From positions 582 through 64,581 of the forward strand of contig JBAYMJ010000004.1 of the NCBI GenBank assembly GCA_041663565.1: a stretch of DNA of 64,000 nucleotides, in the 5' to 3' direction. Source of the DNA: Candidatus Micrarchaeia archaeon (GTDB lineage Archaea; Micrarchaeota; Micrarchaeia; Norongarragalinales; CAINOH01). Below the pieces are notes generated by a model. That model made no database searches, was not told the DNA's origin, and saw only the letters and a program-made list of their open reading frames with translations. Both the position numbers and the translations under genes were made by a program. Of this stretch, positions 1-18,618 are shown piece by piece (position 1 is the first letter of the stretch; each line of letters opens with the position of its first letter).

Positions 1-3000
1 CGGCGGGTTCGCGCTGACGGAATGATAGCTGGCCTGTGAAAGGCCTGTTCCGCTGTAAACCGCGAAAAACAGGCTCTGCCCGCCGTAGAGGAACCACGAA
101 TTCCCGTCGTTGCCGCACCCGTCCGGGCAGCCTATGTGCTTGTCTATTATGCCGCCCCCGGACGCGGACGCGGGCTTGACCCAAGCCTGCACCGTGAGCG
201 CGGGAGTTCCGTCGAGGCCACCCGAATCAGGAACCTCGAGGTAATCCTTCGCCCCGTCAAACCTCATCGCGCTGCCCCACTTGCCGTCAGGAGTCCAGTC
301 GGCGTGCCTCGCCCTGCCCTCGCTGTACAGGCTGGACACTTCATAAGCCGAAAGGCCGCGCGAATAAAGCGCGACCTCGTCTATGGTGCCGTTGAAGAAG
401 TGGCCCGTCGGGTTGTAAGCGCCTATGTACTTGGACCGGTTGTAGTACGGGAAAAGCATCGGGTACCCGGCGTACTGCCTTGCGAAGAACACGCCGTTGC
501 GGTAAACGTCAACAGTGCCCGCGGGGTAGTCGGCCACGACAACTATGTGGACGAGCGTGTTGTCAAGCCCCGTGAAGTAGCCCGGAAAGTAAAGCCCGTA
601 ATAATACGTGCCGTTGCCGTACTGGAAGCACAGGTGGTCGCCGGCCGCGTTGCGGTAGACGAACAGGTAACCCCCGACGCCCTGCGCGTCGTCGCTGAGA
701 AGCGTCTGGTAGCTCGCCGACAGGCTGCTGTTTACCCACATCGACATCGTGAGCGTCGAGTTGCCCGGGCTGCTTATGGCAAACGGGCCCGTTGCAAGGT
801 AGTCGTTCAGCCCGTCGAAGCGCAGGCCGTAGCCGGACTTTCCTGCAACCGAGTCCGCGTGCCTGGCCCTGCCTGAATTGTACCGGGAGAGGACTTCGGA
901 AGCGGAAAGGGATTTGTTGTATATTCCGACTTCATCGATTGTACCGTTGAAATAGGTGTTCCGGTTGTATTGGCCGCCAACACGCAAAGTTGTTGAGACG
1001 ATGATGTTTGCAGTCGCTGATGTTTCGTTTGCCAGTAGTCCGTTAACATAGATGCGAACCTTCGAGTGGTCGTAAGTCCCGGCAATGTGATACCACGTGT
1101 TTTCCGTTGGCGTAATGCTGAACTTTGCGCTACCCGCACCATAAAAGAGGGCAGTCATCGTGTTGTCTGAAAAGTACTCAAGCAAAAATCCCTTGTCGCC
1201 GTCGTCTCCGCCGTACGCCACAACGATTTGGCTGCTGTTTGGAACCTTGTTCCATTTTACCCACGCGCAGACTGAAACGTTATTCTGCCCGTATGGGATT
1301 GCGCCTGAACGTAAGTCCAAGTCAACGTAATCATTGACACCGTCGAACAATATGCCGGCGCCGCTCTTTCCTGCCACCCAATCGGCGTGCTTGGCCTGGC
1401 CGGCATTGTACTGCGCAAGGACTTCGGAAGCCGAAAGCGAACGGCTTGCAACCATTACCTCGTCAATCGAACCGTTGAAATACATCCACTTGCCCCACGA
1501 CGGCGAGTATTCCGCGCCGATGTAGAGGTTGAGCGCGTTCGTCGGCAGCGGGATAGGAAGCGTGCCGTTGGAGGCCTGGATGCCGTCAACGTAACCCACC
1601 ACCGAAAGGCCATCTATTGTCATAGTGTAGTGATGCCAGCCGGACTGGGTGAAAAACAGGGGGTTGTAGGCGCCATTGTATGACGTATAAAGTATCACGC
1701 TGCTGCCACTACCCGCAGTTGCAATGGACCATTGCCCGTTGTCTATCCCATACTTGCTTATTATCCCGTTGCCCCACGACTCTGCCTGCACGCCGGGATT
1801 CATCCACCACGAGACGGACATCTTGCTCGAGAGATTGATGGATGAAGAGGCTGCGACCACCGCATAGTCATTGACACCATCAAACGAGACACCCAGGCCA
1901 GCTTTTCCGGTCGTCCAGTTGCAGTTGGTGACTCCTGACCCGCCGTTCATGTTGTAGCACGTGGCGTTATTTGCGTATACGCCCTTGTCGTAAGCCGTGT
2001 TGCCCGCATTCTCATCCATATGAAGAAGCAATGCGGTATTCCCATAGAGCTTTCCATTATTGAGGTTGGTGCTTCCATCGGCAATTGAAGTCGGATCTGC
2101 CTCTTCCATGTGCAGGAGGAGCGCAGTATTCCCATAGAACCTTCCGTTGTTGTGGTTGACGCTCTCGTCCGTGATGTTCGCCGAATCATCGTCCTCCATG
2201 CGCAAAAGAAGCGCGGTGTTCCCGTAGATTGTTCCGTTGTTGCCGTAGCGCGAGACGTCAACTACCTTGGCTGCGGTGTCACCGATTGCTGCCATGTCGT
2301 CGAAGTTGTACGCAAGCACAAGCGAGTCGTTGTACATCGTGTAGTTCGCGCCGTTCCAGTTGAACACCACCTGCGAAGGCACTGTCGTGTTCTGGACGCT
2401 CGCAGTTATCGTTATGTTGTTTATGAACACCGTGGGAGCGTTCAGCGGGGTCTGGGGGAGGAACAATATGCCGTTGAACGTGACGCTGCGCGAATCGCTC
2501 GACACGTTCGACCAGTTGGAGCCGGAAAGCGACGAGGCGAAAAGCCTGTAACCGTAAGCCCCGCTGTCCACGCCCTGCCGCACCGAAGTGAACAGCCACC
2601 GGTCAGGAGCGTACTTTGCGAGGTTGGAATAATACTGCTGCTGTATCTCGGCTGCGGAAAGCGAACGGTTCCACACGCGCACCTCGTCTATGGAGCCGTT
2701 GAAATGGCGGTTGTAAGCGGTCCCGTCGTACCAGCCGACCATCGTGTGCTCTGGTATCAACACCTTCGAAGCCGCGGGACTGGAATCGCTACCCACCAAC
2801 GAGCCATCCACGTACACGTTGGCGATGATACCGTTGCCTGTCGCGGCTATGTGGTGCCATCCCGGCGCATATGCATTGTTCACCTGTATCAGAGTGCCCC
2901 AGGTGGACCCGTCGGCAGACTCCACGAAGCCCTGCAAGCTGTTGCTGAAAAAGAGACTGTACGGACCGTAACCGTTGCTCAACTTTATCTTAGAAAGCAC

Positions 3001-6000
3001 GTCAGCATTGCCCGAACCAGCATAATTGACCCACGCGGAGACTGTGATGGGCCCGGTGACGTTCAGGCCGGCCGAATCGCCACTGTCAACATAATCATCA
3101 ACTCCGTCAAACCTCAAAGCCGAGCCCCACTTGCCGCTCGGGCCCCAGTCCGCATGCTTTGCTTTCCCGGCGTTGTAGTGCGCAGCGACTTCGGAGACGG
3201 TTAGCGCCTTGGAATAGACTCCAATCTCGTCAAGCGAGCCGTTCAGGTTGTACGCCGCATAGTTCAGCTTGCCTATCAGCATGCTGTTGGACTCCGACAG
3301 GTTGGTGATGTTGCCTGATGAACTCTTATTGGTGCCGACTGGGACGCCGTTGACGTAAAGTTGTGCCCTGTGGCTTGCGAAGGAATAGGCTGCGGCTACG
3401 TGCGTCCACTGGTCAAGCGGGATTATGTCGCCTGTGCTTGCCGGCCAATAGTCCTCATAATTCGTGCCGTCGCCAAGAATAAGTGATGGAACGTACGGGT
3501 GGCTGGAACCGCTGCCGGATATCACAAACGCATATCCGCTAGCCTTGTCCGCCCCTGCGACATTGGTTTTCTTCGCCAGTATTCCAGGGTTGACCGCGGG
3601 GTTGTCGTTGCGCTTGACCCACGCCTCCAGCGTGAAGTCGTTGGTGGACAGGGTGAGACTGTTGCTGTTGGGTATGACCACGTAATCGTCGTTGCCATCA
3701 AAGGAAATACCTGTGCCGGTTTTTCCGGCAACCCAGCTACAGTTGGTAGTTCCGGAGCCGCCGCCCATGTTGTAGCAGGTTCCGTTGTTGCGCCAGACGC
3801 TTTCGTCGTAAGTCGTGTTGCCTGCGTTCTCGTCCATGCGCAAAAGCAGCGCGGTGTTCCCGTAAATCGTGCCGTTGTTGCCGTAGCGCGATACGTCAAC
3901 TACCTTGGATGCCGAGTCGCCGATTGCCGATTGGTCGTCAAAGTTGTACGCAAGCACAAGCGAGTCGTTGTACATCGTGTAGTTGGAAGAGTTCCAGTTG
4001 AAGATGATGGCCGAAGGCTGCGAAACGTTCTGGATGCTCGCATTGATGGTTATGTTGTTGATGTAGACGGTCGAGGCGTTCGCCGGGGTCGGCGAGAGGA
4101 ACCGGATTGCATTGAACGTGACGGACCGCAATTCGCTGGACGAGGTGTTCCCGACGGGATCGCGCGTCCACAGGAAATAATTGTAGGCCCCGCTGTCGAC
4201 GTCCTGAGGTGAATAAGTAAAGAGCCACCTGCCGGGCGCGTACTTTGCGAGGTTGGAATAATACTGCTGCTTGATTTCATCTGCCGAGAGCGAACGGTTC
4301 CAAATCCGAACCTCGTCGATTGAGCCGGTGAGTACTAGCGAACCGGTGAAATACGCGCCGACAGAAGCCTTGTCAATCCCCGAAAGCCCGCCCCATTGCC
4401 CGTCGTTGCTTGCCTGGCCTACGGACAGCGGCTTGCTTGCCCCATCGAGATACAAGGTAGTGTAAGTGCCGTTGTACGTGGCTGCTATCTGGTGCCAGTT
4501 GCCATCGAAGACCTCCGACCGCGAGGAAGTAACGTAGCCAAGCCGAGGCCCGGAGGACTGCCTGCCGAGCATGATAAGCTCTCCGCTCAGTGTGCTGGTG
4601 CAGCCGTCGCCTATGCATATGTCCTGGTGCTGTGTAACATCCCCGGAATTGCCTATGCCGAAAAGGGTCGCGGTGGTTTCGGACGCGGACTTGACCCACA
4701 GCGAGACCGTTGCAGGCGCTGCGAAATTCAATGCCGAAGCGTTGGAAACAAGCACGCGGCCATATGCGCCGTCAAGCCTCAACGCCGAATTCCATTTTCC
4801 GTTCGGGTCCCAGTTTGCGTGCTTTGCCTTCCCGGCATTGAACTGGTTGAGGATTTCAGCCGCGGAAAGCGAGCGGTTGACAACCATGGCCTCATCAATG
4901 GAGCCGTTGAAGTAAGCCCCGTAATTCCAACCCGCACCCAAAGAAACGCGAACATAAGTCGGCGCAGTGCCGCCAGACGAGCCCAGATAGGCTCCGTCAA
5001 CGTAGAACTTGTAAGTGGTGCCTTCGCGCGTTCCCATCAAGTGGTGCCACTGGCCGTCGTTTTGCGGCGCGGTGCCCAATACATTGCCTGTCGGCCCCCC
5101 GCTGTTATCGGTAATGAACGTGCCGTTGGTGTACAAGCAAATCTGGAATCCCGCCCCGCTCGCCTGCGCCAAGTCCATTATCCTCTGCTGATAGGCCTGC
5201 GCCGCGGAGGCTTTCACCCATGCACCGAAAGAGAAGTCGCCAGTTATATTCGCGGAAAACGTGTTTGACAGCACATAGTCGTTGACTCCGTCAAAACTGA
5301 TTCCGCTACCGCTCTTTCCCGCAACCCAATTGCAGTTGGTGACTCCCGAACCTCCGCTCATGTTGTAGCACGTGCCGTTGTTCCTGTAAGCGCTCTCGTC
5401 ATAAGTGGTGTTTCCGGAGTTCTCGTCCATGTGCAAAAGCAGCGCGGTGTTCCCGTAAATCGTGCCGTTGTTCCCATACTTGCTCGTGTCCACCACTTTC
5501 CCCACGGTGTCCCCAATCGCGGAAGCGTCGTCGAAGTTGTACGCAAGCACAAGCGAGTCGTCATAAAGCGTGTAGTTCGTGCCGTTCCACGAGAACGTCG
5601 CGTTCGAAAACGTCTGGCTCGCGACGGTCGTGTTGTCGATGGTCGCGTTGAACATGGCGTTGGCCGAAAACACTGTCGAGCCACTGTCCGGGGTCGGCGG
5701 GGCGAACTGTATGAGGCTCGGGTAGTTTGTCGCATTCGGCGTAGGTGAAGGCGACGGGCTGGCGGTGGGCTGTGAGGACAGCACGTAGACGGACGCGGGA
5801 ATCTCGATGCTCTGGTTGCCGAGCTCGCCCTGCACGGTCACGTTGACTATCCCCGAATAAATGCCGTACGCGGAGTCACCGACAGTAAAATTTACAAAAA
5901 AAGGGACGCTTGAGTGGGCGGAAAGCGCAAAGCTCGAGCTCGGGCAGGAGATTGTCACGTCGCTCGCGGTCCAGTTGCACTGCACGGTCACGTTCGAGCT

Positions 6001-6492
6001 GGTGCTTGAAAGGCTGGACAGGGTTATGGGTTCATTATGGGTTTCACTGAGAAAAAGCGTGGTGTCAATCGCGCTCACGTTTGCGTAGGCGAGCCACCTG
6101 CCGATGGACACGGTCGCGCCGTCGTTCTCGACCAAAAACTCGTACGTGCCCGGCCTGCCTGGGAGCGAGCCGGTCACCTGGAACGGGAACGTCTCTATGT
6201 AGTCGGACCGCCCGGCGTGAACCTTGATGTAGTAGGGGTAGACCCCGGACAGGGACGCGTTGTAGGAGCGCGGCAGCGTGACCAGGGACGTTTTCCGCGC
6301 GCCGATGCCCTGGGCGTAGACTTCGCGGGCCGCGTTGCCTATGTCGGTAGCGGCGAGGGACGCCTGCAGCTCGGCCTTGCGGGTTGACAGGGCGCTGCCC
6401 TGCTCGTTGGAAAGTGTGACTGTCACAAGGAGGACGAGCAGGGCGATGCCCAGTATCATCATAAACTCCAAAGTAGTCTGGCCGCGACGCAT
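1..6492 (-). CDS. Giant (>2160 aa in window, 3'-truncated by window edge) secreted/surface protein with archaeal class-III (pilin-type) signal peptide and repeated LamG/ConA-like lectin modules
   Basis: Hand translation of minus strand from the ATG at 6492 gives MRRGQTTLEFMMILGIALLVLLVTVTLSNEQGSALSTRK (RGQ-TTLEF class-III signal peptide). Further hand-translated stretches give LamG-like motifs: ALRFDGVDDYVDSGDSAGLN (from the reverse complement of 3061-3120), GSLDEIGVYSKALTVSEVAAHYNAGKAKHADWGPSGKWGS (3121-3240), IYGNTALLLHMDENSGNTTYDESAYRNNGTCYNMSGG (~5344-5460), and NTALLLRMEDDDSANITDESVNHNNGRFYGNTALLLHMEEADPTSIADGSTNLNNGKLYG (2041-2220). The frame is antisense to all the plus frame-1 pseudo-ORFs. 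No minus-frame ORF with codon ends congruent to 0 mod 3 is listed in 1-6500, which is consistent with one open frame running off the window. Confidence 0.8.
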   Translation of the reverse strand, partial: MRRGQTTLEFMMILGIALLVLLVTVTLSNEQGSALSTRKAELQASLAATDIGNAAREVYAQGIGARKTSLVTLPRSYNASLSGVYPYYIKVHAGRSDYIETFPFQVTGSLPGRPGTYEFLVENDGATVSIGRWLAYANVSAIDTTLFLSETHNEPITLSSLSSTSSNVTVQCNWTASDVTISCPSSSFALSAHSSVPFFVNFTVGDSAYGIYSGIVNVTVQGELGNQSIEIPASVYVLSSQPTASPSPSPTPNATNYPSLIQFAPPTPDSGSTVFSANAMFNATIDNTTVASQTFSNATFSWNGTNYTLYDDSLVLAYNFDDASAIGDTVGKVVDTSKYGNNGTIYGNTALLLHMDENSGNTTYDESAYRNNGTCYNMSGGSGVTNCNWVAGKSGSGISFDGVNDYVLSNTFSANITGDFSFGAWVKASAAQAYQQRIMDLAQASGAGFQICLYTNGTFITDNSGGPTGNVLGTAPQNDGQWHHLMGTREGTTYKFYVDGAYLGSSGGTAPTYVRVSLGAGWNYGAYFNGSIDEAMVVNRSLSAAEILNQFNAGKAKHANWDPNGKWNSALRLDGAYGRVLVSNASALNFAAPATVSLWVKSASETTATLFGIGNSGDVTQHQDICIGDGCTSTLSGELIMLGRQSSGPRLGYVTSSRSEVFDGNWHQIAATYNGTYTTLYLDGASKPLSVGQASNDGQWGGLSGIDKASVGAYFTGSLVLTGSIDEVRIWNRSLSADEIKQQYYSNLAKYAPGRWLFTYSPQDVDSGAYNYFLWTRDPVGNTSSSELRSVTFNAIRFLSPTPANASTVYINNITINASIQNVSQPSAIIFNWNSSNYTMYNDSLVLAYNFDDQSAIGDSASKVVDVSRYGNNGTIYGNTALLLRMDENAGNTTYDESVWRNNGTCYNMGGGSGTTNCSWVAGKTGTGISFDGNDDYVVIPNSNSLTLSTNDFTLEAWVKRNDNPAVNPGILAKKTNVAGADKASGYAFVISGSGSSHPYVPSLILGDGTNYEDYWPASTGDIIPLDQWTHVAAAYSFASHRAQLYVNGVPVGTNKSSSGNITNLSESNSMLIGKLNYAAYNLNGSLDEIGVYSKALTVSEVAAHYNAGKAKHADWGPSGKWGSALRFDGVDDYVDSGDSAGLNVTGPITVSAWVNYAGSGNADVLSKIKLSNGYGPYSLFFSNSLQGFVESADGSTWGTLIQVNNAYAPGWHHIAATGNGIIANVYVDGSLVGSDSSPAASKVLIPEHTMVGWYDGTAYNRHFNGSIDEVRVWNRSLSAAEIQQQYYSNLAKYAPDRWLFTSVRQGVDSGAYGYRLFASSLSGSNWSNVSSDSRSVTFNGILFLPQTPLNAPTVFINNITITASVQNTTVPSQVVFNWNGANYTMYNDSLVLAYNFDDMAAIGDTAAKVVDVSRYGNNGTIYGNTALLLRMEDDDSANITDESVNHNNGRFYGNTALLLHMEEADPTSIADGSTNLNNGKLYGNTALLLHMDENAGNTAYDKGVYANNATCYNMNGGSGVTNCNWTTGKAGLGVSFDGVNDYAVVAASSSINLSSKMSVSWWMNPGVQAESWGNGIISKYGIDNGQWSIATAGSGSSVILYTSYNGAYNPLFFTQSGWHHYTMTIDGLSVVGYVDGIQASNGTLPIPLPTNALNLYIGAEYSPSWGKWMYFNGSIDEVMVASRSLSASEVLAQYNAGQAKHADWVAGKSGAGILFDGVNDYVDLDLRSGAIPYGQNNVSVCAWVKWNKVPNSSQIVVAYGGDDGDKGFLLEYFSDNTMTALFYGAGSAKFSITPTENTWYHIAGTYDHSKVRIYVNGLLANETSATANIIVSTTLRVGGQYNRNTYFNGTIDEVGIYNKSLSASEVLSRYNSGRARHADSVAGKSGYGLRFDGLNDYLATGPFAISSPGNSTLTMSMWVNSSLSASYQTLLSDDAQGVGGYLFVYRNAAGDHLCFQYGNGTYYYGLYFPGYFTGLDNTLVHIVVVADYPAGTVDVYRNGVFFARQYAGYPMLFPYYNRSKYIGAYNPTGHFFNGTIDEVALYSRGLSAYEVSSLYSEGRARHADWTPDGKWGSAMRFDGAKDYLEVPDSGGLDGTPALTVQAWVKPASASGGGIIDKHIGCPDGCGNDGNSWFLYGGQSLFFAVYSGTGLSQASYHSVSANPP
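2195..2480. repeat. Approx. 300-nt intragenic/intergenic DNA repeat (copy 1 of 4) encoding the GNTALLLHM(D/E)E…NNGTCYNM linker module
   Basis: Shared strings such as aagttgtacgcaagcacaagcgagtcgttgta and gcgcggtgttcccgta…gccgttgttgccgtagcgcga recur at ~2200, ~3770, ~5430 and ~15080. Boundaries are approximate. Confidence 0.55.
3768..4055. repeat. Repeat copy 2 (about 88% identical to 15082-15362 by eye)
   Basis: Direct by-eye comparison of 3768-4055 with 15082-15362. Confidence 0.6.
5415..5700. repeat. Repeat copy 3
   Basis: Same conserved strings (ccatgtgcaaaagcagcgcggtgttcccgtaaatcgtgccgttgtt…aagttgtacgcaagcacaagcgagtcgtc). Confidence 0.55.
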
Positions 6493-6585
6493 ATTTTCCC
6501 CGAACAGTGAACGGAATTAGTGCTTTTTAATGCGCCTTTTAGCTCGTAAAAACGGGAAAAATTCGCTGGAGCGGCTGGCTTTCCG

Positions 6586-9339
6586 CTACTTGCACGCATC
6601 CGCAGTCGGGTGGTCGGCACAGACTATTTCATTCAACTGCCCTATCTGCAACTTCTGCTTTGCATTGTCGGACTTCATCTGTTCTATCTGCGCCTGCTGC
6701 GCCGCCTTGTCCGCCTTGAGCGCGTCGATTTCCTCCTGCTGTTCCTGCATCGCGCTGACAATCACGGGCGCGATGCGCTCGTAGGATATCCCCTTGTAGC
6801 CCTTGTCGTCGGTAGTCACCAATTCAGGAATGATTTTCTCAACGTCCTGCGCGATGAAACCGACTTGAGTTCCATCGGTGAAGCCCATGTTCGGGTACTC
6901 ACTCGTCCGCCACTCGAAATTCACAGGCTTGAGCGCCATTACCTTGTCGAGCGATGCCGAAGGCAGGAGCGAAGTCACGTTCTTCTTCCAGCGCGCATCA
7001 GAACCCGACCACGAACCCGAGGTGACCCAAGCGGTGCCTGCGACGGTCAGAGTATAGCTGGGGGTTGTTGTGCCGATGCCGACGTTGCCGCTCTTCAGGG
7101 TCATCGTATCCAAATAATTCTGCGAACCCAAACGCAACTCCCAAAGGGTGCTGACAAACTGCGAGGTTATTCTTCCAAGTTCATAAGAGCCTTGGTTGAA
7201 GCTGATTTTTGTCCCGGTCCCACTGCCTTCGCTGTTGGGATTGTCCAACCTCAATAACTCTACTACCGCGCCGCTTGACGTCTTGGCCAGGTGCAGCGGC
7301 GCGCCAGGGCTGGCGGTGCCTATGCCCACGCTGCCATTTAGGATTGACGAGCCATCCACGCGCAATGTTGCCGCAGGCACCTGGTAGCGTATGATCACGA
7401 TTCCCGAACCGCCTGCCCCGCCGGAACCGCCGGTGCCGCTTGCGGGCCATCCGCCACCTCCGCCTCCACCGCCACGGTTAGCTATGCCTGCAGTTCCATT
7501 GCTTCCGCCGGTCGCCCCGGCTCCGCCGCCGTCCATCGCAGCCCCGAAAGAGGTATAACCGCCGCCTCCACCGCCGCCTGCATAAGTAAGCGAGACCCCG
7601 GAAATGGAATAAGCCAACCCATAGCCGCCGGACCCGTTGCCTGAAGTACCGCCTGCAGTGCCCGCGCTGCCGGCACCGCCACCTCCACCGCCCACGTATG
7701 GCAATGCGGACCCTCCGCCAGCGCCGCCTGCATTACCCTGGGAACCGGTTCCGCCGGCAGCACTCGTACCGCCGCCTCCGCCCGAACCGCCGTTTCCTCC
7801 GGCATAACTAGATTTTGCGCCATAACCGCCGCCGATTGCGGTGATTGGACCGAACGTGGAATTGTTGCCGGAGCTTCCGCTGTTGCCGCCCTGACCATCC
7901 GCGTTTCCGAGACCGCCCGCACCACCGGCACCCACAGTAACAGTATACGGCGTCGTAGTTATGGCATAAGACGCGTTGTACAGGACTCCGCCACCGCCAC
8001 CACCGCCTATGCCATTACCGTTCCCGTACCCGCCGCCTCCACCACCACCGCCTGCGACCACGAGGTATTGCACGCTGGTGACTCCTACGGGGGGGATGAA
8101 CGTGCTGTTGCCGACTGTCGTGAACTTGTGAACGCGGTAAGCGACGCCGTTCTCAACAATGTCATAGATGCTGTCGCCTCCAAAACCCATCGGCCCTGCA
8201 ACGTGAAGCATCTCGCTTGAGACAGGCGTGCCGATGCCTACGCTGCCGTTGAGGAAGGTCGTTCCGTTCACGTGCAGCATTGCCAGGGGCCTTGTTGTCC
8301 CTATGCCGACGCTGCCTTGAAGAACCGCAGCAGGACCGGATATCGGGTAGCGGATTATCACTACCCCTGAACCGCCGTAACTGTTGCCGGCGCCGTTGCC
8401 GGTGCCAGCACCGCCATTGCCCAACCCGTTGGTGCCTGATGCGCCAACTGTGCCGTCGGAGCGGCCGTAACCTGCGTTACCTCCGGTGGCATAAGTTACC
8501 GGGACGCCGCTGATGCTGCTGGTGACGCCAATCCCGCCAAGACCCATCGTGTTCTGGCCGAACTGGCCTGGCCCGCCGGCACCGCCGCCACCGCCACCGC
8601 GGTCGTTGCCGCCATACCAGCCGCCGTCTCCGCCGTTGTTGCCCTGGCCCGCAATCCCGTACCCTCCGAGAGACTGGCTCATGTCGCTGAAGATTGTTCC
8701 CGCACCGCCGCCCGAGCCGCCGGTATTGGCGCGCCCGCCGCAATGCGTCACTCCGCCACCGCCGCCCATTGCGGTGATGTTTGCAAAAGTCGAATTCCCG
8801 CCGTTGCCTGCTGCGCCATAACCACCCGCGCCTACTGATACGGTATACGCCCCGGACACGCCGGTAAGGACCCCAGTAAGCATACCCCCCGCTCCGCCAC
8901 CGCCACCCGCGGTGTTGACCTGCGCGCCTGCTCCGCCGCCACCGCCTGCGACGACAAGGTATTCGACTTGGGTGACTCCAGTAGGCGCGGTGAACGTGCT
9001 GTTGCCAACGGTCGTGAACTTGTGCACTCGGTAAGTCGTGCCGTTTTCAACAATGTCATAGATGCTGTCCCCGCCGGAACCTCCCGACACGTTGATTGGA
9101 GGAACGACCTGAAGGGTCGCGTTGGGGCTTGCTGTGCCGATGCCTACGCGGCCGGAAGCGGAGTTGACAAAGAGCGAACCATTGCCCGCGGAAAAGTCGC
9201 TGGTTGAGTTGAACTGGCCCTGCACAAGAAGGCTTCCTGCTGACGCGGGCTGGAAAAGCAAGACCGCACAAAGAAGAAGCAAAGACGCGCACGTAGGCAA
9301 GGAAACCAAATACCTACAGCCACTTGCACCAACCACCAT
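6586..9339 (-). CDS. Secreted Gly-rich tail-fibre-like protein with C-terminal peptidase S74 (intramolecular chaperone auto-processing) domain
   Basis: Sec-type signal peptide (…LLFQPASAGS). N-terminal phage tail-fibre-like repeat (GRVGIGTASPNATLQVV). Two copies of the motif IVENGTTYRVHKFTTVGNSTFTAPTGVTQVEYLVVAGGGGG, each followed by a poly-Gly tract and GSGIVIIRYQ. C-terminus SDARWKKNVTSL…LKPVNFEWR…GFIAQDVEKIIPELV…GYKGISYERIAPVIVSAMQEQQEEIDALKA matches the S74 chaperone domain consensus. Confidence 0.8.
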   Translation of the reverse strand: MVVGASGCRYLVSLPTCASLLLLCAVLLFQPASAGSLLVQGQFNSTSDFSAGNGSLFVNSASGRVGIGTASPNATLQVVPPINVSGGSGGDSIYDIVENGTTYRVHKFTTVGNSTFTAPTGVTQVEYLVVAGGGGGAGAQVNTAGGGGGAGGMLTGVLTGVSGAYTVSVGAGGYGAAGNGGNSTFANITAMGGGGGVTHCGGRANTGGSGGGAGTIFSDMSQSLGGYGIAGQGNNGGDGGWYGGNDRGGGGGGAGGPGQFGQNTMGLGGIGVTSSISGVPVTYATGGNAGYGRSDGTVGASGTNGLGNGGAGTGNGAGNSYGGSGVVIIRYPISGPAAVLQGSVGIGTTRPLAMLHVNGTTFLNGSVGIGTPVSSEMLHVAGPMGFGGDSIYDIVENGVAYRVHKFTTVGNSTFIPPVGVTSVQYLVVAGGGGGGGGYGNGNGIGGGGGGGVLYNASYAITTTPYTVTVGAGGAGGLGNADGQGGNSGSSGNNSTFGPITAIGGGYGAKSSYAGGNGGSGGGGGTSAAGGTGSQGNAGGAGGGSALPYVGGGGGGAGSAGTAGGTSGNGSGGYGLAYSISGVSLTYAGGGGGGGYTSFGAAMDGGGAGATGGSNGTAGIANRGGGGGGGGWPASGTGGSGGAGGSGIVIIRYQVPAATLRVDGSSILNGSVGIGTASPGAPLHLAKTSSGAVVELLRLDNPNSEGSGTGTKISFNQGSYELGRITSQFVSTLWELRLGSQNYLDTMTLKSGNVGIGTTTPSYTLTVAGTAWVTSGSWSGSDARWKKNVTSLLPSASLDKVMALKPVNFEWRTSEYPNMGFTDGTQVGFIAQDVEKIIPELVTTDDKGYKGISYERIAPVIVSAMQEQQEEIDALKADKAAQQAQIEQMKSDNAKQKLQIGQLNEIVCADHPTADACK

Positions 9340-9383
9340 ACTGCATTCCCATTAGCTTTCAGCAAACCCGAATAATACTGCGC

Positions 9384-11954
9384 TCATTTGCAGGCATCCG
9401 CAGCAGGGTGGTCAATGCACACAAGCGCCTTCAGCTGTTCTATCTGCAACTGCTGCGCAGCCTTGCCAGCCTTGAGCGCGTCGATTTCCTCCTGCTGTTC
9501 CTGCACCGCCTTCACAATTACCGCGGAGAGCTGCCCATAGGCAATCCCTTTCCTGCCATCCTCGCCGGAAACGACTTCGGGAACCACTTTCTCAAGTTCC
9601 TGCGCAACGAACCCGACCTGGGAAGAGTTGTCGGACTTCATCAGGTAGCTTCTTGGCTGCATCAACATCAAATCCGCCAATCCGTAGTGGATGTCCCTTA
9701 CGTCCTTCTTGTAACTTGCATCGGACGCGCTGGTCCACGCGCCTGCGGAAGAGAGGTAGCCTTCGTTCGCTCCGTTGTAGAAGTACAGGTTTCCCGCATA
9801 ACCCAGGTATATTTGGCGATACAGTCCTTCCGACGAATCCTGTATCTCTAGGCCGGTGTAAGGCAGGCTCTTGTTGTTGACCACGTGAAGTGCCGCGGAC
9901 GGGCTTGACGTGCCGATGCCTACGCTGCCGTTGAAGAACGACTGCCCGTTCACGTGCAAGGAAGCCGCGGGACTGGATGTGCCGATGCCGACGCTGCCTT
10001 GGAAGACCGCTGCCGACCCGACTTGATAGCGCACGATTACGATTCCTGAACCGCCATTGCCGCTAACTTCACTAACGCCCCCGCCGCCCTCGCCGCCGGA
10101 ACCGGTATTATCGAGGCCCGACACGCCATTCCCGCCTGCACTCCCGTTGCCGCCGGCTGCGTATGTAACCGGGGTTCCTGAAATATAATTTACATTTCCC
10201 GCGCCACCGAGACCACCGCTAGGATATCCGACGTATCCTGCATGGCTGCTGCCACCGCCACCGCCACCGGAGTTGTTTCCGGGTGCACCAACAATCGCCG
10301 CACCGCCAGCATAACCTTGACCGGCTATTCCAGAACCGCCGGGGGCGCTGTCACGAGCGCCTCCACCGCCCCCAGAACCACCAGCCTGACCATTCCAATC
10401 AATACTATATTCCCCGCCGCGGCCGCCACCCTTCGCTATAATCGTATCAAAAACGGAATCGCTGCCGCTGGTTGCACCACCACCCCAGCCTGCACCGGAT
10501 CCTCCGGCGCCGACAGTTATTATTTTTGCCCCGTTGACGATGAGTGAACCTGAGAGATATCCGCCTGCACCGCCACCACCACCATATCCCCCGCCTCCGG
10601 CGCCGCCGCCAGCAACTACGAGGTATTCAACTTGCGTGACGCCATCCGGCGGGGTGAACGTGCTGTTGCCAATGGTCGTGAACTTGTGGACCCGGTAAGC
10701 CACGCCGTTCTGTACTATTTCATAGACGCTGTCGCCTCCGGACGCCATTGGACCGGAAACAACGTGAAGCTTCGCCTTCGGACTCGCCATCCCTATGCCG
10801 ACGCTGCCGTTGAAGACTGACGTACCCGCCACATGCAACGTAGCCAAAGGATTCGCTGTGCCTATGCCGACGCTGCCTTGGAAGACTGCCGCGGGTCCTG
10901 ATAGTTGGTAGCGTATGATCACGATGCCGGAACCACCATTGCCGCCAACGCCGCCACCCGCCGGAGCTAAGGCAGTAGACCCGCCTCCTCCGCCACCGGT
11001 ATTTGCATCTGCGTTTGAACCGCTCACTGTGGAACGCCCCGTCCCACCGCCACCGATGCCACCTGGCGTAGTTAGCCCGGCAGTTTCGCCTGCCCCTCCG
11101 CCTCCACCGCCTGCATAGTATGTCGGAGTACCTGAAATCGAGTAGGACAGGCCTATTCCGCCAGCTCCGGTAGTTGCACCAGAAACTCCCGCGCCACCCG
11201 CGCCGCCACCGCCACCGCTCCGAGTGCCACCAGTAGCAGCATCTCCAATTGCGCCATTATTGCCCTGGCCAGCGACGCCCTTACCATAGGAATACAAATT
11301 ATCGTAATTATTGGGACGACCACCAGCGCCGCTGCCGCCATCCTCAATATCGGAACGGCCACCGGCGTTGTAACCCGGAGCACCACCCCCGCCTATTGCC
11401 GTCTGAGAGTTAAAGCTACTGTTGGACCCTTTGCTTCCAAAAGCATCATTTGCATTGAACTCGGCTACGGTTGCAGGCCTGCCGGCGCCACCCGCACCTA
11501 CAACAACAGGATAGCTTGTTCCTGCAGTTACAAAGGAAGAGGAATTGTAAATCAGGCCGCCTGCTCCGCCTCCACCACCATACCACGAAGCACCTCCACC
11601 GCCACCCGCAACAATAAGGCATTCGACAGAAGTAACGCCACTAGGCGGAGTGAATGCGCTGGTGCCGACTGCTGTGAACACGTGGACGCGGTAGGTCGTG
11701 TTGTTGACTACGGTGTCATAGACTCGGTCCCCGCCAAAACCGCTGGAACCGCTAACGACATGAAGAGTCGCATTTGGGCTTGACGTGTTGATGCCTACGC
11801 GGCCGGAAGCGGAGTTGACAAAGAACGAACCATTGCCAACGGAAAAGTCGCTGGTCGAGTTGAGCGCACCCTGCACGAGCAGGCTTCCTGCGGACGCGGG
11901 CTGGCACAGGCAAATGACAAGGAACACGGAAATAATCCAAAGGCCAGATTTCAC
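9384..11954 (-). CDS. Paralogous secreted Gly-rich tail-fibre-like protein with C-terminal peptidase S74 chaperone domain
   Basis: N-terminus is near-identical to the 917-aa neighbour (SAGSLLVQGALNSTSDFSVGNGSFFVNSASGRVGINTSSPNATLHVV). It has the same duplicated YRVH.FT…GVT.VEYLVVAGGG motif and Gly-rich tracts. C-terminus SYKKDVRDI…GFVAQELEKVVPEVV…GIAYGQLSAVIVKAVQEQQEEIDALKA. Confidence 0.8.
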   Translation of the reverse strand: MKSGLWIISVFLVICLCQPASAGSLLVQGALNSTSDFSVGNGSFFVNSASGRVGINTSSPNATLHVVSGSSGFGGDRVYDTVVNNTTYRVHVFTAVGTSAFTPPSGVTSVECLIVAGGGGGASWYGGGGGAGGLIYNSSSFVTAGTSYPVVVGAGGAGRPATVAEFNANDAFGSKGSNSSFNSQTAIGGGGAPGYNAGGRSDIEDGGSGAGGRPNNYDNLYSYGKGVAGQGNNGAIGDAATGGTRSGGGGGAGGAGVSGATTGAGGIGLSYSISGTPTYYAGGGGGGAGETAGLTTPGGIGGGGTGRSTVSGSNADANTGGGGGGSTALAPAGGGVGGNGGSGIVIIRYQLSGPAAVFQGSVGIGTANPLATLHVAGTSVFNGSVGIGMASPKAKLHVVSGPMASGGDSVYEIVQNGVAYRVHKFTTIGNSTFTPPDGVTQVEYLVVAGGGAGGGGYGGGGGAGGYLSGSLIVNGAKIITVGAGGSGAGWGGGATSGSDSVFDTIIAKGGGRGGEYSIDWNGQAGGSGGGGGARDSAPGGSGIAGQGYAGGAAIVGAPGNNSGGGGGGSSHAGYVGYPSGGLGGAGNVNYISGTPVTYAAGGNGSAGGNGVSGLDNTGSGGEGGGGVSEVSGNGGSGIVIVRYQVGSAAVFQGSVGIGTSSPAASLHVNGQSFFNGSVGIGTSSPSAALHVVNNKSLPYTGLEIQDSSEGLYRQIYLGYAGNLYFYNGANEGYLSSAGAWTSASDASYKKDVRDIHYGLADLMLMQPRSYLMKSDNSSQVGFVAQELEKVVPEVVSGEDGRKGIAYGQLSAVIVKAVQEQQEEIDALKAGKAAQQLQIEQLKALVCIDHPAADACK

Positions 11955-12012
11955 AAAAACACCAACTTACCAAAACAACCCAACAGTCAAAACGTCAGAA
12001 AGCCAATACGTA

Positions 12013-13404
12013 CTACGTGAACCCGAGGAATATCCACTTGACAACCGTGTTGCTGTCGCACTCCGAACCGACCATCATGACCTCGACGTCGCTGTACTGG
12101 GCCGCGCGCCTTGCAATCGGATAGCCCGAGCACCAGGCCGAATACTGGAGCTGCGTAGCCATGCTTCCGACTGAAGCAGCGGAATTCGAGATGGCGTACG
12201 TCGAGCCGCCGTATGACCCTTTCAGGATGAGCAGCCCCTGGTCCAGCTGGCCTATTGACCTCCAGCCTCCGCCGCCTACGTCGATGGTCCCGCTTTGTAT
12301 TGCTGCCAAGTTGCTCTTTATGTTGCCTGCCGCCTCGATTTTTCCGCTTGAAAATATGTTGACGGGCTTGTTGCCGTTGCTGTCGGATGTCGAGAAGACA
12401 GTTGAGTCGTCGGATGTGACGGTTATGTACATGTGGTTGCCGGTGTTAAAAGTCGTAGGCGTGAACGTCCCTCCGAGAGTGGGCTCGGTGTTGTCCTGTA
12501 TGTAGTCCACGGCACCGCCCGTGCCGTTGTCAACGTAGAACGCGCCAGTTGGCATGTAACCCACCACCCCGCTTTTCCACGCGACGTAATAATCGGCAGT
12601 AGCCGAGGTCAGCGGGCTGCCTATGGTCAGGTCCGCCTGCGAGAAAGCCTGCGTCACCTGCGCGCCTGCAGCCCCAGCAGGCAGCGTGAAGCGCGCGCCG
12701 AACCTTACTGCCCACGTGTTGCCGCCGGTGTTCTCGACAAACAGCAGCCACCACTTTCCTGTTGTGCTTGCGCTGGGCTTGCGGTAGGTCACCGCGGTGT
12801 ACAGCGTGTTCTTTGCAAGCAGGAACTCGGGCGTGTTCTCAACCCCGAAATAAGCGTTGTTCGCGTCGAACCACGAAGTCCCGTCAGTGTGCGGCAACGG
12901 GTGACCCGTCAGGCCGTAGGACGTGTTGCTCCGGACCTGCAGGCTTGCAGACGGGCTTATGATGCCGATGCCCACGTTGCCGGTGCCGTTCTGTATGGTG
13001 ACCCGGTCTGCAATACCTGACTCCGTAACCCTCAGCGTGCCGTCGTAATCCATCCGCACTATGTGCCATTTTAGCGAACCGGATGCATTGCCGAAGAATA
13101 TTACCGAGTTGTTCCACGCGTCGGGACTCACCCTAATAGACCCGTTCACGTCAAGCCTAACTATGGGGCTCACCGTACCGACACCGACGTTGCCGGAAGT
13201 CGCGTTCACGAAAAACGAAATCGAACCGTTGCCAGCAGAAAAGTCGCTGCTTGAGTTGAGCGCACCCTGCACGAGCAGGCTTCCGGCGGACGTGACCGGG
13301 CAGAGGAGGATTGCGCCAAGGAGAAGGAACGCGAAAAAAGCGGGAGCGTCGGCTGCCAAGACGCCGCGCGCCGCATTACCGCCCAAAACAGTTCTTGCAA
13401 TCAT
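12013..13404 (-). CDS. Secreted protein sharing the fibre-like N-terminal module (SAGSLLVQGALNSSSDFSAGNGS…GNVGVGTVSP) but with a distinct C-terminal region
   Basis: 463-aa ORF. Signal-peptide-like N-terminus, and N-terminal motif paralogous to the two S74 proteins. No S74 domain. Confidence 0.65.
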   Translation of the reverse strand: MIARTVLGGNAARGVLAADAPAFFAFLLLGAILLCPVTSAGSLLVQGALNSSSDFSAGNGSISFFVNATSGNVGVGTVSPIVRLDVNGSIRVSPDAWNNSVIFFGNASGSLKWHIVRMDYDGTLRVTESGIADRVTIQNGTGNVGIGIISPSASLQVRSNTSYGLTGHPLPHTDGTSWFDANNAYFGVENTPEFLLAKNTLYTAVTYRKPSASTTGKWWLLFVENTGGNTWAVRFGARFTLPAGAAGAQVTQAFSQADLTIGSPLTSATADYYVAWKSGVVGYMPTGAFYVDNGTGGAVDYIQDNTEPTLGGTFTPTTFNTGNHMYITVTSDDSTVFSTSDSNGNKPVNIFSSGKIEAAGNIKSNLAAIQSGTIDVGGGGWRSIGQLDQGLLILKGSYGGSTYAISNSAASVGSMATQLQYSAWCSGYPIARRAAQYSDVEVMMVGSECDSNTVVKWIFLGFT

Positions 13405-13435
13405 GATATCCTACCCATCATCCAACAAACCCGAA

Positions 13436-16198
13436 TCAACTGCCGTTGTTCTGCATGAGGCTGCCCACCAGGCACATCTGTCCTGTCTCGCTAATGTATG
13501 ACACGGTAACGTTGTTTGCGTCCTTGACCACGAACAGGTTGTCCGACGCGGTGCACGAAGCGTCGTGGTCGCCGCAGGACGCGTCCTCCAAGCACAGGTT
13601 CCCTGCCTCGGTTATGTACGCGTGGGACACGCCAAGGGAGTCGCGGAACGCCAGCGCGCCCGACGGCGGGGTTGCGCAGCTTGCGCCTGCCGAGCAGGCG
13701 CCTGAAAGTATGACGTCGCCTGCCTGCGTGAACGTCGCCACGCTCGTGCCGGTCGGCGCCTGGAAGAACGCTATGCCTGAAGAGAACACGACCTTGCGCA
13801 GCGCCGAGCGCCCCGACCAAGAATCGTTCTGCGCGAACAGGGAATACCACACGCTGCCTTCAAGCAGGGGGCTGCTATACGAGAACAGCCACTTGTCGGG
13901 CGCGTACTTTGCGAGGTTGGAATAATACTGCTGCTGTATCTCGGCTGCGGAAAGAGAGCGGTTCCAGACGCGCACCTCGTCTATGGAGCCGTTGGAGGAA
14001 TAACCCCTGCCGGAACCGATCCACCAAGGATAGTTGGCCGCATTCGTTACGTTCTGGCCGTACATGGGCTGGGTAAGCCCCAAAGCGAGAGGCATCTGTA
14101 CCCCGTTGACGTATATTGAGAAGTTGTTCGTTGAACCGTCGTGCGTCGCCACGACGTAGGTCCATGCGTTCCTCGGAACTACTCCGACTGCGGTCCTTGA
14201 ATACCTGACCCAGCCATAGCCCCAGTGAGGCACGCCCACAAAGACGTCGCCAAAGCCCACGTCGGTCACCAAAAAGTCGAAGCCATAATTGTTGCCGAAC
14301 GACGGGTCGGGTGCTATTAATATGTGGTTGTAGCTGTTACCCTGTATCTTGACCCACGCCCCGACCGTCCAAGGCACGGCGTCTCCGAAAACCCCACCCA
14401 ACGCGCTGCCGTTGGCCTGCAGGTAGTCGTCAACCCCGTCAAACCTCATTGCACTCTCCCACTTCCCTTCCGGGTCCCAGTCGGCGTGCCTTGCCCTGCC
14501 CGCAGCGTAGGCCGCGGCAACTTCCGCGTCCGAAAGGGCGCGAGAGAAGACTCCAACTTCATCTATTGAACCGTTGAACCCGGCCATGAACGAGTCGCCT
14601 ATCCTGTTGAACGCGCCGATGTTAACCGAGTTGTTGGCAAAACACAACGGCCCGTACGCGGCCCTAGAACCGTTGAGCACGCCGTTCAGGTAGACGCGTA
14701 TCGATTGGCGGTCACGGTCGTACGCAGCCGCCACGAAGGTCCAAGAGTTGGCCGGCACCGCGTTTGTTGCAAACCCGTTGTTGGTGCCCGACGGGTCGCC
14801 TGCGGTGTTGTTGATGAATTGGAACGACACGATGCCTGGCGAGGCGAAGAACAGCATGAACTGCTGGTGCTCCTCCGTTCCCGGGCCATAGCGGTACTTG
14901 CCGACAATCTGTGGGCTTGAAAGCGAGCGAGGGTATATCCAAGCCATCACGGTCACCGCGTTGGAAACGTTAGCAGCTGACGCGTTGCCTGCGACGACGT
15001 AGTCGTCCACCCCGTCGAACTGAACCCCGGTTCCGCTCTTGCCTGTTGCCCACCCGCAGTTCGTGACTCCCGTGCCTCCGTTCATGTTGTAGCAGGTTCC
15101 ATTGTTGCGCCAGACGCTCTCGTCGTACGTCGTGTTGCCGGTGTTCTCATCCATGTGCAGAAGCAGCAACGTGTTGCCGTAAATCGTGCCGTTGTTGCCG
15201 TAGCGCGATATGTCCGTCACCTTGCTCGCGGTGTCTCCGATTGCGGAAACGTCGTCGAAGTTGTACGCAAGCACAAGCGAGTCGTTGTATACCGTGTAAT
15301 TCGTCGAGTTCCAATTGAAGATTACGCCCGAAGGCTGCGAAACGTTCTGGATGCTCGCGTTTATGGTGATGCCGCCAAACGCCATCGATGAATTCGCCGG
15401 CGTCGGCGGCAAGAACTGTATTAGCGAGACTGGCGGGCTTGAGATGACGTTGGATACCACCAGGGTTATCGGCACCTGGAAGCTCTGGTTCCCGGTTGAC
15501 CCTGCGCCGACAAGCGATATGAAAAGCTGGCCGGAGTAGGTGCCCTTTGCGAGCGCGCTGGTGTTCACAAGCAAGTCTAGTTGCTGCGTGCCGTAAGCCA
15601 AAAGCGTGAAGTCCGAAGGGCCAAAAGTTAGGTTGACGCTGCCGTTAGACCACGTCGAGGACACCGTGCCTGCCATCTGGACGATTGACGTGCTTGACAC
15701 GAGGATGGCGTCCGAATATCCGCTGCCGGGGGCCACCACCGCGCTTATGGACGTACGATTGATGCGCGCGACCTTGTCGCCGATTATGACCGAAGTGCCG
15801 TCGTTCTCAACCGGCCAATAGTACGTGCCGGAAGAGTCGGGCAGGCTCCCCTGCAGGGAAAAGGAGAAGGTGCGCACGTAGTCCGTGTCCTTTGCACGCA
15901 GGATTATCGCGTTCTGCGTGATGCGCGAGTTGTCCGGGTCGTAGGAGCGCGGCAGGTCTATCGTCACAATCTTGCGCGCGCCCGCGCCCTGCGAGTGCAC
16001 CTCCCGCGCGGCGTTCGCAAGGTCGGTCACCGCGAGGTTTGCGGAGATTTCGACGTTGCGCGAGCTCAGCGCGTCGCTCCGGCCGACCGTGACCGCGTAG
16101 ATTATCGCAAATACGACTACCGCTGCGGCGAAAAGGAGCAGGAACTCCGTTGAACTCTGCCCCCTGGCCTTGACGCTCCCCATAAAACCCGGTATCAA
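13436..16198 (-). CDS. Large (920 aa) surface protein with class-III (pilin-type) signal peptide and LamG/ConA-like domains
   Basis: N-terminus MIPGFMGSVKARGQSSTEFLLLFAAAVVVFAIIYAV (KARGQ-SSTEF). LamG motifs GVQFDGVDDYVVAGNASA and GSIDEVGVFSRALSDAEVAAAYAAGRARHADW. Shares the YGNTLLLLHMDENTGNTTYDESVWRNNGTCYNM module and an ~88%-identical ~300-nt DNA repeat with the giant gene. True start may be the internal Met (MGSVKARGQ, 16183). Confidence 0.8.
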   Translation of the reverse strand: MIPGFMGSVKARGQSSTEFLLLFAAAVVVFAIIYAVTVGRSDALSSRNVEISANLAVTDLANAAREVHSQGAGARKIVTIDLPRSYDPDNSRITQNAIILRAKDTDYVRTFSFSLQGSLPDSSGTYYWPVENDGTSVIIGDKVARINRTSISAVVAPGSGYSDAILVSSTSIVQMAGTVSSTWSNGSVNLTFGPSDFTLLAYGTQQLDLLVNTSALAKGTYSGQLFISLVGAGSTGNQSFQVPITLVVSNVISSPPVSLIQFLPPTPANSSMAFGGITINASIQNVSQPSGVIFNWNSTNYTVYNDSLVLAYNFDDVSAIGDTASKVTDISRYGNNGTIYGNTLLLLHMDENTGNTTYDESVWRNNGTCYNMNGGTGVTNCGWATGKSGTGVQFDGVDDYVVAGNASAANVSNAVTVMAWIYPRSLSSPQIVGKYRYGPGTEEHQQFMLFFASPGIVSFQFINNTAGDPSGTNNGFATNAVPANSWTFVAAAYDRDRQSIRVYLNGVLNGSRAAYGPLCFANNSVNIGAFNRIGDSFMAGFNGSIDEVGVFSRALSDAEVAAAYAAGRARHADWDPEGKWESAMRFDGVDDYLQANGSALGGVFGDAVPWTVGAWVKIQGNSYNHILIAPDPSFGNNYGFDFLVTDVGFGDVFVGVPHWGYGWVRYSRTAVGVVPRNAWTYVVATHDGSTNNFSIYVNGVQMPLALGLTQPMYGQNVTNAANYPWWIGSGRGYSSNGSIDEVRVWNRSLSAAEIQQQYYSNLAKYAPDKWLFSYSSPLLEGSVWYSLFAQNDSWSGRSALRKVVFSSGIAFFQAPTGTSVATFTQAGDVILSGACSAGASCATPPSGALAFRDSLGVSHAYITEAGNLCLEDASCGDHDASCTASDNLFVVKDANNVTVSYISETGQMCLVGSLMQNNGS
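15082..15362. repeat. Repeat copy 4, inside the 920-aa LamG gene
   Basis: See copy 2. Confidence 0.6.
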
Positions 16199-16733: not shown

Positions 16734-17057
16734 ATGGCTGGAAAAAAGAAGGGAATGGATTGCGTCAAGTGCGGGGGGCTAGCTAAGCCCGCCAAAACCG
16801 GGTTCCAGGGCATCGATATAGACGGGTGGAAGTGCACGCGGTGCGGCGAGGTATATTACGACCCGGCCCAGGCACAGCGGATACTCCTGCTTCACAAGCT
16901 CGGGCACGAAGAGATTGAAGCCAAGCTAGGCAAGGTGCGGAGCAACCTGATACTGCGCATCCCAAAGGCGGTTGAGGAAGGCCTCGGGCTCAAGGAAGGC
17001 GAAAAAATCAGGCTCAAGGTGCGGAACGCGACGGAATTGACGCTCACAACGGGATAA
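16734..17057 (+). CDS. Zinc-ribbon (CxxC…CxxC) plus AbrB/SpoVT-like swapped-hairpin domain protein, putative antitoxin
   Basis: N-terminus CVKCGG…CTRCGEVYYD. C-terminus LILRIPKAVEEGLGLKEGEKIRLKV is AbrB/MazE-like. 15-nt gap from the upstream small ORF. Confidence 0.5.
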   Translation: MAGKKKGMDCVKCGGLAKPAKTGFQGIDIDGWKCTRCGEVYYDPAQAQRILLLHKLGHEEIEAKLGKVRSNLILRIPKAVEEGLGLKEGEKIRLKVRNATELTLTTG

Positions 17058-18360: not shown

Positions 18361-18618
18361 ATGGAAATGATTGTCAGGCTTGACGGCATGGTGGAAAAAA
18401 TCCTGAACTCGCTTGTCAAGCAGGGTTACTACAAGACCAAGACCGAGGCAATCCGTGCGGGAATACTTTGGATGGGAAGGGACTACAACCTCATAACCGA
18501 CCCCGAAGCAAGGCTTGTCTCCAAAAGGATAAGGCAGATGGAGGCCGAGGTAGCTGCAGGAAAGAAGAGGATGGTTCCCATCGAGGAAGTCGCCAGGAAA
18601 GCTGGCGTTAAGATATGA
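18361..18618 (+). CDS. Small DNA-binding antitoxin-like protein (RHH/CopG/ParD-like)
   Basis: 85 aa. Its 4-nt overlap (ATGA) with the downstream RelE/ParE-family ORF is the classic TA arrangement. Confidence 0.55.
   Translation: MEMIVRLDGMVEKILNSLVKQGYYKTKTEAIRAGILWMGRDYNLITDPEARLVSKRIRQMEAEVAAGKKRMVPIEEVARKAGVKI

Follow-up and report, generated by a model that had tools for sequence, protein, structure and literature searches.

What the first 6,492 nucleotides (nt) of a 64,000-nt stretch of Candidatus Micrarchaeia archaeon DNA (contig JBAYMJ010000004.1; the whole stretch is referred to as the window) encode is not evident from the list of its open reading frames (ORFs), which offers a series of plus-strand ORFs there; an earlier note, made from the sequence without database searches, had proposed that these are spurious and that one giant frame runs through the opposite strand and past position 1. 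The question bears on a wider one: little is known of the means by which DPANN archaea locate their hosts and keep hold of them, and suspicion usually falls on large LamG surface proteins. Positions 1..6492 (minus strand) are likely to be the 5' part of a giant gene for a modular pilin-type adhesin of the Micrarchaeia (DPANN), the product of which would carry a glycan-binding array for attachment to a host or surface. This reading draws on the continuity of the frame, on an N-terminal module with relatives among the pilins of the same window, and on a long array of LamG domains.

The 5' part of the coding sequence comprises 2,164 codons (1..6492, minus strand), beginning with the ATG at 6492..6490 and leaving the window at position 1 without a stop. 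When the reverse complement of 1..6492 is translated in this frame there is no stop in the 2,164 codons, and no frameshift was found; the remaining minus frames contain 71 and 58 stops over the same positions, and the plus frames contain 26 (codon-aligned antisense frame), 95 and 83. With stops making up about 3% of codons, a stop-free run of 2,164 codons would arise by chance with a probability of approximately e^-65 by our own arithmetic. The GC content of the giant gene at codon positions 1, 2 and 3 is 0.50, 0.48 and 0.74, and that of the third position (GC3) stays between 0.67 and 0.81 over all 200-codon blocks; GC3 is steady along 1..6492, and a single continuous coding frame is therefore indicated.

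The seven plus-strand ORFs listed over 1..6492 all have starts congruent to 1 modulo 3 and thus lie in the codon-aligned antisense frame, as the earlier note had stated. The codons TTA, CTA and TCA are used 1, 3 and 22 times in the giant gene; because the stops of the antisense plus frame correspond to these rare sense codons, that frame remains open over long stretches, and the seven ORFs are antisense shadows of the giant gene. The absence of the gene from the ORF list, which the earlier note had pointed out, is an artefact of the lister and no biological oddity: the lister omits ORFs that run off an end of the source. The gene is annotated publicly as a partial coding sequence. For annotation this is a reminder that, where a lister leaves out ORFs truncated at an end, the largest genes go unreported and their antisense shadows appear in their place.

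Along its entire length the translation matches, at 100% identity, residues 1-2,164 of P0001, a partial LamG protein of 2,357 amino acids (aa) from Candidatus Micrarchaeia archaeon in the NCBI record; the giant gene is already annotated publicly, though incomplete there. P0001 extends the open frame by 193 aa and is still partial, which bears out the proposed continuation past position 1. It is encoded on a 64,718-nt contig that ends inside the gene; its last residues read "...NYTFYNDSLVLAYN", and the longest exact repeat inside the giant gene is 44 nt in length and encodes NYTMYNDSLVLAYNF. Judging from this end motif and the 44-nt repeat, the public contig probably breaks at a repeated module. 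A 50-nt exact pattern from window positions 31-80, used to look for the continuation of the gene, had no match in the genome or metagenome contig sets, and an exact-sequence look-up of P0001 returned no contig on record.

The full gene is probably 13 kb or longer. Giants with the same LamG super-repeat include P0108, which is complete at 4,444 aa, P0107 (6,910 aa) and P0112 (7,018 aa); P0108 has at least 17 LamG stretches, and its gene lies inside a 1.2-Mb contig. The module order is common to the independent complete or long relatives P0108, P0107, P0112 and P0002, which come from other samples. A search for related loci with a 4-sequence alignment found only two loci, both in archaeal metagenome-assembled genomes.

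The N-terminus of the giant protein is predicted to carry a class III (prepilin-type) signal peptide with a hydrophobic helix (6412..6492, minus strand; residues 1-27, MRRG followed by QTTLEFMMILGIALLVLLVTVTL), in agreement with the signal peptide that the earlier note had read at 6492. The leader is short and basic and ends in Gly, and the next 20 or so residues are hydrophobic (MRRG, then QTTLEFMMILGIALLVLLVTV); this pattern is kept throughout an 18-member alignment of the family. Cleavage is predicted after Gly4, which would leave Gln at position +1 and Glu at position +5 of the mature protein (MRRG/QTTLEF, the slash marking the predicted cut). Both Q5 and E9 are invariant across the 18 sequences, E9 being the mature +5 residue.

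The signal peptide forms the start of a pilin-like N-terminal module (6088..6492, minus strand; residues 1-135), which is predicted to consist of a 60-residue α-helix followed by a seven-strand β head. The AlphaFold2 model of residues 1-135, built from the 18-sequence alignment, has a mean predicted local distance difference test (pLDDT) score of 94.4 and places the helix at residues 2-61 and the strands at residues 66-132; an earlier AlphaFold2 model of residues 1-260, built from 4 sequences, is poor beyond residue 133. The module is followed by a second β-rich domain (residues 136-240) and a Pro/Ser/Thr linker (residues 241-258), together at 5719..6087 (minus strand), a region common to the smaller paralogue encoded at 13436..16183. 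Residues 136-240 are poorly modelled, with AlphaFold2 pLDDT values below 50.

With the N-terminal 260 aa as query, a word-indexed protein search returned no more than two matches, and an exhaustive hidden Markov model search was needed to reveal the family of the module; the exhaustive profile search found 809 proteins at E <= 1e-3. The profile behind these 809 proteins also spanned the C-terminal part of P0104, and because of this some of the matches cover only the Cys-rich C-terminal domain described below. Stand-alone relatives of the module (P0109 and others) are 132-140 aa long and start with [KR]GQxSxE; in mid-sized archaeal proteins (P0133, P0165, P0125, P0169) the module precedes VWA, FG-GAP, RTX-repeat or Ig/PKD cargo. 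The giants P0108, P0107 and P0112 make up a third group among the matches to the module. These fusions to varied cargo suggest a general modular pilin platform in the lineages concerned.

The module is also linked by homology to the type IV pilus assembly locus of the window (45996..53237, plus strand), which was recognized through Pfam and NCBIfam. When the profile of the module is compared with the window, the ORF at 45996..46505 in the pilus locus matches over its full length with 68 bits (positions 4-132), and the adjacent ORF at 46507..46899 matches with 30 bits. On this homology the N-terminal module of the giant is of the same family as the stand-alone pilin at 45996..46505, and it is assigned to the pilin family. 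The locus ties a large LamG protein directly to the type IV pilus system via a common pilin module.

Beyond residue 258 the protein is dominated by LamG domains. Pfam Laminin_G_3 (PF13385) matches the 2,164 aa encoded in the window with 530.8 bits against a cutoff of 27.6 bits (E = 3.5e-161, 8 stretches); the LamG motifs singled out by the earlier note are found in place, with FDGVDDYV at residue 1128 and GSLDEI... at residue 1085. The domains are arranged in super-repeats that start at residues 259, 796, 1341 and 2305. Each super-repeat opens with a junction piece (..SPTP..NWNxxNYTxYNDSLVLAYNFDD), continues with one to three 30-aa "YGNTALLLHMDE" units and then two or four LamG domains, and ends with a closing "QQYYSNLAKYAP..W.F" piece. 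Junction pieces and module copies recur at a spacing of about 1.6 kb with 70-82% nucleotide identity.

Super-repeat 1 (4108..5718, minus strand; residues 259-795), delimited from a motif map, Pfam and the DNA repeat families D1 and D3, runs in the order junction (..PPTP..WNGTNYTLYDDSLVLAYNFDD), "YGNTALLLHMDE" unit, LamG-1 (4828..5352), LamG-2 (4249..4827) and closing "QQYYSNLAKYAP..W.F" piece, all on the minus strand as are the features that follow. Super-repeat 2 (2473..4107; residues 796-1340) holds a junction, LamG-3 (3169..3759), LamG-4 (2620..3168) and a closing piece. Super-repeat 3 (1..2472; residue 1341 to beyond residue 2164) has a junction, three 30-aa units and LamG-5 to LamG-8, located at 1405..1941, 877..1404, 319..876 and 1..318, the last being cut by the window edge. 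Further LamG domains follow past that edge. The three tandem 30-aa units of super-repeat 3, of the form YGNTALLLHM(E/D)E...NNGx, occupy 1963..2247 (residues 1416-1510). These tandem units resemble a duplicated lead-in strand preceding a LamG domain; their copy number varies among the super-repeats and the relatives, P0108 being without one copy.

The LamG domains of the giant protein have mutual protein identities of 19-46%. Set beside the nucleotide identity of the recurring module copies, these values describe an array in which the scaffold is conserved and the putative binding domains are diverged. The protein contains 76 N-x-S/T sequons, where 36 +/- 5 are expected from composition, an excess which fits a heavily N-glycosylated archaeal surface protein. 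DUF2341 (PF10102), a partner of LamG in proteins of Candidate Phyla Radiation bacteria, is not among the Pfam matches of the giant protein; PF10102 is present in several distant database matches.

Under the adhesin reading, a prepilin peptidase would cut the giant protein after Gly4, and the hydrophobic helix would either stay in the membrane as an anchor or enter a pilus via the pilus machinery. Uptake into a pilus would place the protein at the filament tip because the cargo is bulky; tip placement has been proposed for the modular pilins PilB and PilC of S. sanguinis (PMC9934059). In either case a long flexible array of lectin domains would be displayed, and the diverged LamG domains may bind glycans on a host, another cell or a surface through many weak contacts. 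The tail-fibre-like trimeric neighbours of the giant, in which Gly-rich regions are joined to an S74 chaperone, are probably part of one attachment apparatus with it.

Several observations weigh against this reading. The class III signal peptide is recognized by Pfam just under the threshold: Class_IIIsignal (PF04021) matches residues 2-25 with 18.1 bits when the whole protein is compared and with 22.7 bits when the comparison is confined to the first 135 aa, the cutoff being 23.7 bits. The family of the N-terminal module includes 6 of 18 members with PF04021 matches at E < 0.05. Foldseek comparison of the 1-260 and 1-135 models with the PDB gave no significant match to a solved pilin (best E = 0.25 and 0.34), and the module profile against PDB sequences gave non-significant best values of E = 0.13 for an archaellin and E = 0.73 for the bacterial pilin PilA5; NCBIfam has no match to the N-terminal 300 aa. 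The window ORFs scanned include no prepilin peptidase gene (Peptidase_A24-type). Some 40 kb of the window separate the giant gene from the pilus locus. Finally, LamG domains bind many kinds of ligand, and glycan binding by the giant is a family-level expectation.

The main rival is membrane anchoring without incorporation into a filament. According to this explanation the protein is a membrane-anchored surface fibril or an S-layer-associated component of the envelope that never enters a pilus; the class III peptide would serve for export and anchoring only, as in the sugar-binding proteins of the Sulfolobus bindosome, and the LamG array would coat the cell or scavenge glycans. A protein of at least 4,000 aa is awkward as a filament subunit, and archaea are reported to use class III signal peptides for non-filament surface proteins (bioRxiv 10.64898/2026.04.22.720090); in the window the gene and the pilus locus are not neighbours, and the match between the ATPase of that locus and the bindosome ATPase BasE is weak and sub-threshold. 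Set against these points are the full-length homology of the N-terminal module to a stand-alone pilin within the pilus locus and the invariance across the family of Glu +5, a residue of pilin-pilin packing as described in PMC9934059. In a related genome, moreover, the giant gene (P0108) has immediately downstream of it four small ORFs whose N-termini are of class III type, an arrangement that also speaks for filament machinery. With these observations taken together, anchoring without a filament is considered rather unlikely, and the modular pilin-type adhesin is preferred.

A second explanation places the LamG protein and its Gly-rich/S74 neighbours in a mobile or viral element such as a provirus, in which they would form a host-recognition module. 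The Peptidase_S74 chaperone is typical of phage tail fibres and spikes; a TnpB/IS605 gene is present at 21005..22174, and toxin-antitoxin-like genes are found nearby both in the window and in the related loci L001-L003. The ORFs scanned include no capsid, terminase, portal or integrase, and housekeeping genes flank the cluster both in the window and in the relative's 1.2-Mb contig, which makes a prophage unlikely. The window holds the archaeal housekeeping genes for Kae1/TsaD, deoxyhypusine synthase, an Rpb7-like subunit and tRNA-intron endonuclease, further archaeal chromosome genes for a mevalonate-kinase-like GHMP kinase and a geranylgeranyl-reductase-like FAD protein, and his-operon genes, of which the scan covered HisG and histidinol dehydrogenase; a search of the window for tRNA genes found none. 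In addition, the pilin type to which the N-terminal module belongs is cellular and has ties to a pilus locus on the chromosome, and a viral origin is judged highly improbable.

It is more improbable still that the frame is a pseudogene, or that several LamG genes were joined through repeated modules into an assembly chimera: the gene does contain internal repeats (one exact, of 44 nt, and others of 120-300 nt at 70-82% identity) and the public contig ends exactly within a repeated motif, but there are no stops in 2,357 codons, GC3 is uniform, the module order matches that of the independent relatives P0108, P0107, P0112 and P0002, and the internal copies are too diverged for trivial mis-joins.

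The adhesin so described is an unexceptional example of a class known from earlier reports on tiny symbiotic archaea. The Micrarchaeota strain Mia14 is reported to have an expansion of LamG genes, some of which show linkage to type IV pili loci, and a role in host interaction was proposed (Golyshina et al. 2017; PMC5498576), and LamG is described there as abundant in DPANN; in Ca. Nanohalococcus and the nanohaloarchaea, LamG genes are found in an operon with fibre-like adhesins (PMC10266531). The DPANN LamG surface proteins described in these sources, together with arCOG07813 of the Undinarchaeales (PMC7414124), resemble the giant in belonging to the same phylum-level group, in having a jelly-roll LamG/ConA-like domain, and in being multi-copy and secreted. 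They differ in that the giant has the pilin module fused to the LamG array, so that the link to the pilus is explicit in the protein itself, and in that the giant is far larger, at more than 2,357 aa here and 4,444-7,018 aa in its relatives. Keyword searches of the full texts of PMC5498576, PMC7414124, PMC10266531, PMC9934059 and bioRxiv 10.64898/2026.04.22.720090 found no description of a pilin-fused LamG giant.

The concept of the modular pilin is established in bacteria (PMC9934059), and the modular-pilin architecture is present in the giant: a pilin module at residues 1-135, which also occurs alone, is followed by the LamG array. PilC of S. sanguinis is a modular pilin whose ConA-like lectin module binds glycans, and its complex has been modelled at the pilus tip (PMC9934059). 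The giant is similar to PilC and PilB in its class III peptide and pilin moiety with an adhesive module grafted C-terminally (PMC9934059, PMC8179133); PilC has a cargo of the same lectin superfamily, and PilB carries VWA, as do some relatives of the archaeal module. In contrast to the bacterial pilins, with which it has no detectable sequence or fold match, the giant has an archaeal leader with Gln at +1; its cargo is 8 to at least 17 LamG domains where PilC has one, the protein is 5-15 times larger, and its location at the tip and binding of glycans are putative.

Two further systems are similar in part. The SPEARE proteins of the nanohaloarchaea (8,880-9,409 aa) are likewise giant strain-specific DPANN surface proteins thought to mediate host contact; they are reported to combine a Sec signal peptide and arrays of Ig-like/fibronectin domains with a VirB4/TraG-like ATPase domain (PMC10266531). 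Membership of the giant in this group was rejected: its signal peptide is of the class III type, and the Pfam matches of the 2,164 aa in the window include neither an Ig or FN3 family nor an ATPase. The Sulfolobus bindosome and class III surface proteins, as described in bioRxiv 10.64898/2026.04.22.720090, also use a class III peptide and helix to display a large ligand-binding ectodomain via filament machinery; the bindosome cargo, however, is an ABC-type solute-binding domain for uptake, whereas the cargo of the giant is a LamG array and no transporter genes are nearby.

What is new from this locus is the fusion of a pilin to a large LamG array, the presence of one pilin family in both the giant and the pilus locus, and a conserved association with proteins of the Gly-rich/S74 kind. 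The link to the pilus and the tail-fibre-like partners provide concrete, testable candidates for the attachment apparatus of the Micrarchaeia. A more speculative proposal, held tentatively and somewhat doubtful as it stands, is that the Micrarchaeia carry a conserved attachment island, in which megadalton modular pilins with LamG arrays and tail-fibre-like trimers would form a pilus-presented host-recognition organelle of these episymbionts, with the LamG domains encoding host range. If true, these pilins, which have 8 to more than 17 LamG domains and reach about 7,000 aa, would rank with the largest known proteins of the type IV pilin family.

Counted by window position, the giant gene is the first of five same-strand genes that span 1..16198 with gaps of 31-93 nt. 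The intergenic region upstream of its start is 93 nt long (6493..6585, minus strand); an A/T-rich TATA-like box, ATTAAAAA, was read by eye at 6524..6531, about 35 nt upstream of the ATG, and given this box the giant gene may have a promoter of its own. The next two genes on the minus strand (6586..9339 and 9384..11954) each encode a protein of about 900 aa in which Pfam identifies two stretches of Gly_rich_2 (PF21722) and a C-terminal Peptidase_S74 chaperone. The fourth gene (12013..13404, minus strand) encodes a 463-aa protein without a Pfam match, the N-terminus of which is common to both Gly_rich_2/S74 proteins. The two S74 proteins are secreted paralogues; Peptidase_S74, an intramolecular chaperone of phage tail fibres and endosialidases, is unusual in an archaeal chromosome.

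The fifth gene (13436..16183, minus strand) encodes a smaller modular pilin paralogue of about 915 aa that starts with MGSVKARG/QSSTEF. It is 45% identical to the giant over the first 400 aa, has the pilin module and junction in common with it, contains two Laminin_G_3 stretches and a Cys-rich C-terminal domain, and is matched by the A3 module profile with 157 bits. A TafC match to this paralogue (47.9 bits against a 410-bit cutoff) sits in the LamG region and was disregarded. The three intervening genes (6586..13404) and the two pilin genes probably form one surface-protein cluster. In the related loci L001 and L002, homologues of the Gly_rich_2/S74 proteins with up to 70% identity are found upstream of P0108, and in P0107 a Gly-rich domain is embedded within the LamG array; because of these two observations the association of the giant with Gly-rich/S74 proteins is regarded as conserved.

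The Cys-rich C-terminal domain of the paralogue (about 110 aa; 13436..13700, minus strand) is common to P0104, P0106 and P0229 and follows the pattern AFRDS.GV.HAYI.E.G.LCLED..C.D.DA.C...DNLFVVK....VSYI...G.LC..G...QNG.P. Pfam has no match to it. Many surface proteins of different lengths (up to 3,787 aa), LamG proteins among them, end in this conserved domain, which may serve in anchoring or sorting.

In the pilus locus itself, five small ORFs that are pilin-like and have class III signal peptides (45996..46505, 46507..46899, 46871..47461, 47476..48027 and approximately 48024..48575) precede a T2SSE/FlaI-like ATPase (49241..50737), two T2SSF platform genes (50749..51633 and 51637..52671) and a further, terminal pilin (52743..53237), all on the plus strand. 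The locus looks complete, with its two platform genes. A layout of this kind corresponds to the "system 1" type IV filament loci, which have two platform genes and are reported from methanogens and DPANN in bioRxiv 10.64898/2026.04.22.720090; archaeal type IV filament loci are also described there as including large adhesin-like proteins. Farther along, the ORF at 55674..56384 (minus strand) has an internal PF04021 match of 20.7 bits at residues 80-103; its real start is probably downstream of the listed one, and it looks like an additional, orphan pilin-like gene.

Beside the surface-protein cluster, small antitoxin- or toxin-antitoxin-like genes are present at 16734..17057 and 18361..18884 (plus strand), among them a 107-aa ORF with a MazE/AbrB-type domain; at two related loci (L001 and L003) a UPF0175 and DUF3368 pair lies directly upstream of the pilin-module gene. 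The gene at 21005..22174 (plus strand) is of the TnpB/IS605 OrfB family (OrfB_IS605 and a Cas12f1-like TNB), with no adjacent TnpA among the listed ORFs. Lastly, the ORF at 35593..37689 (plus strand) encodes a protein of 698 aa whose N-terminus has a hydrophobic, signal-like stretch and which contains a transglutaminase-like core domain (PF01841, 23.9 bits); it may be another surface protein or an envelope protease.

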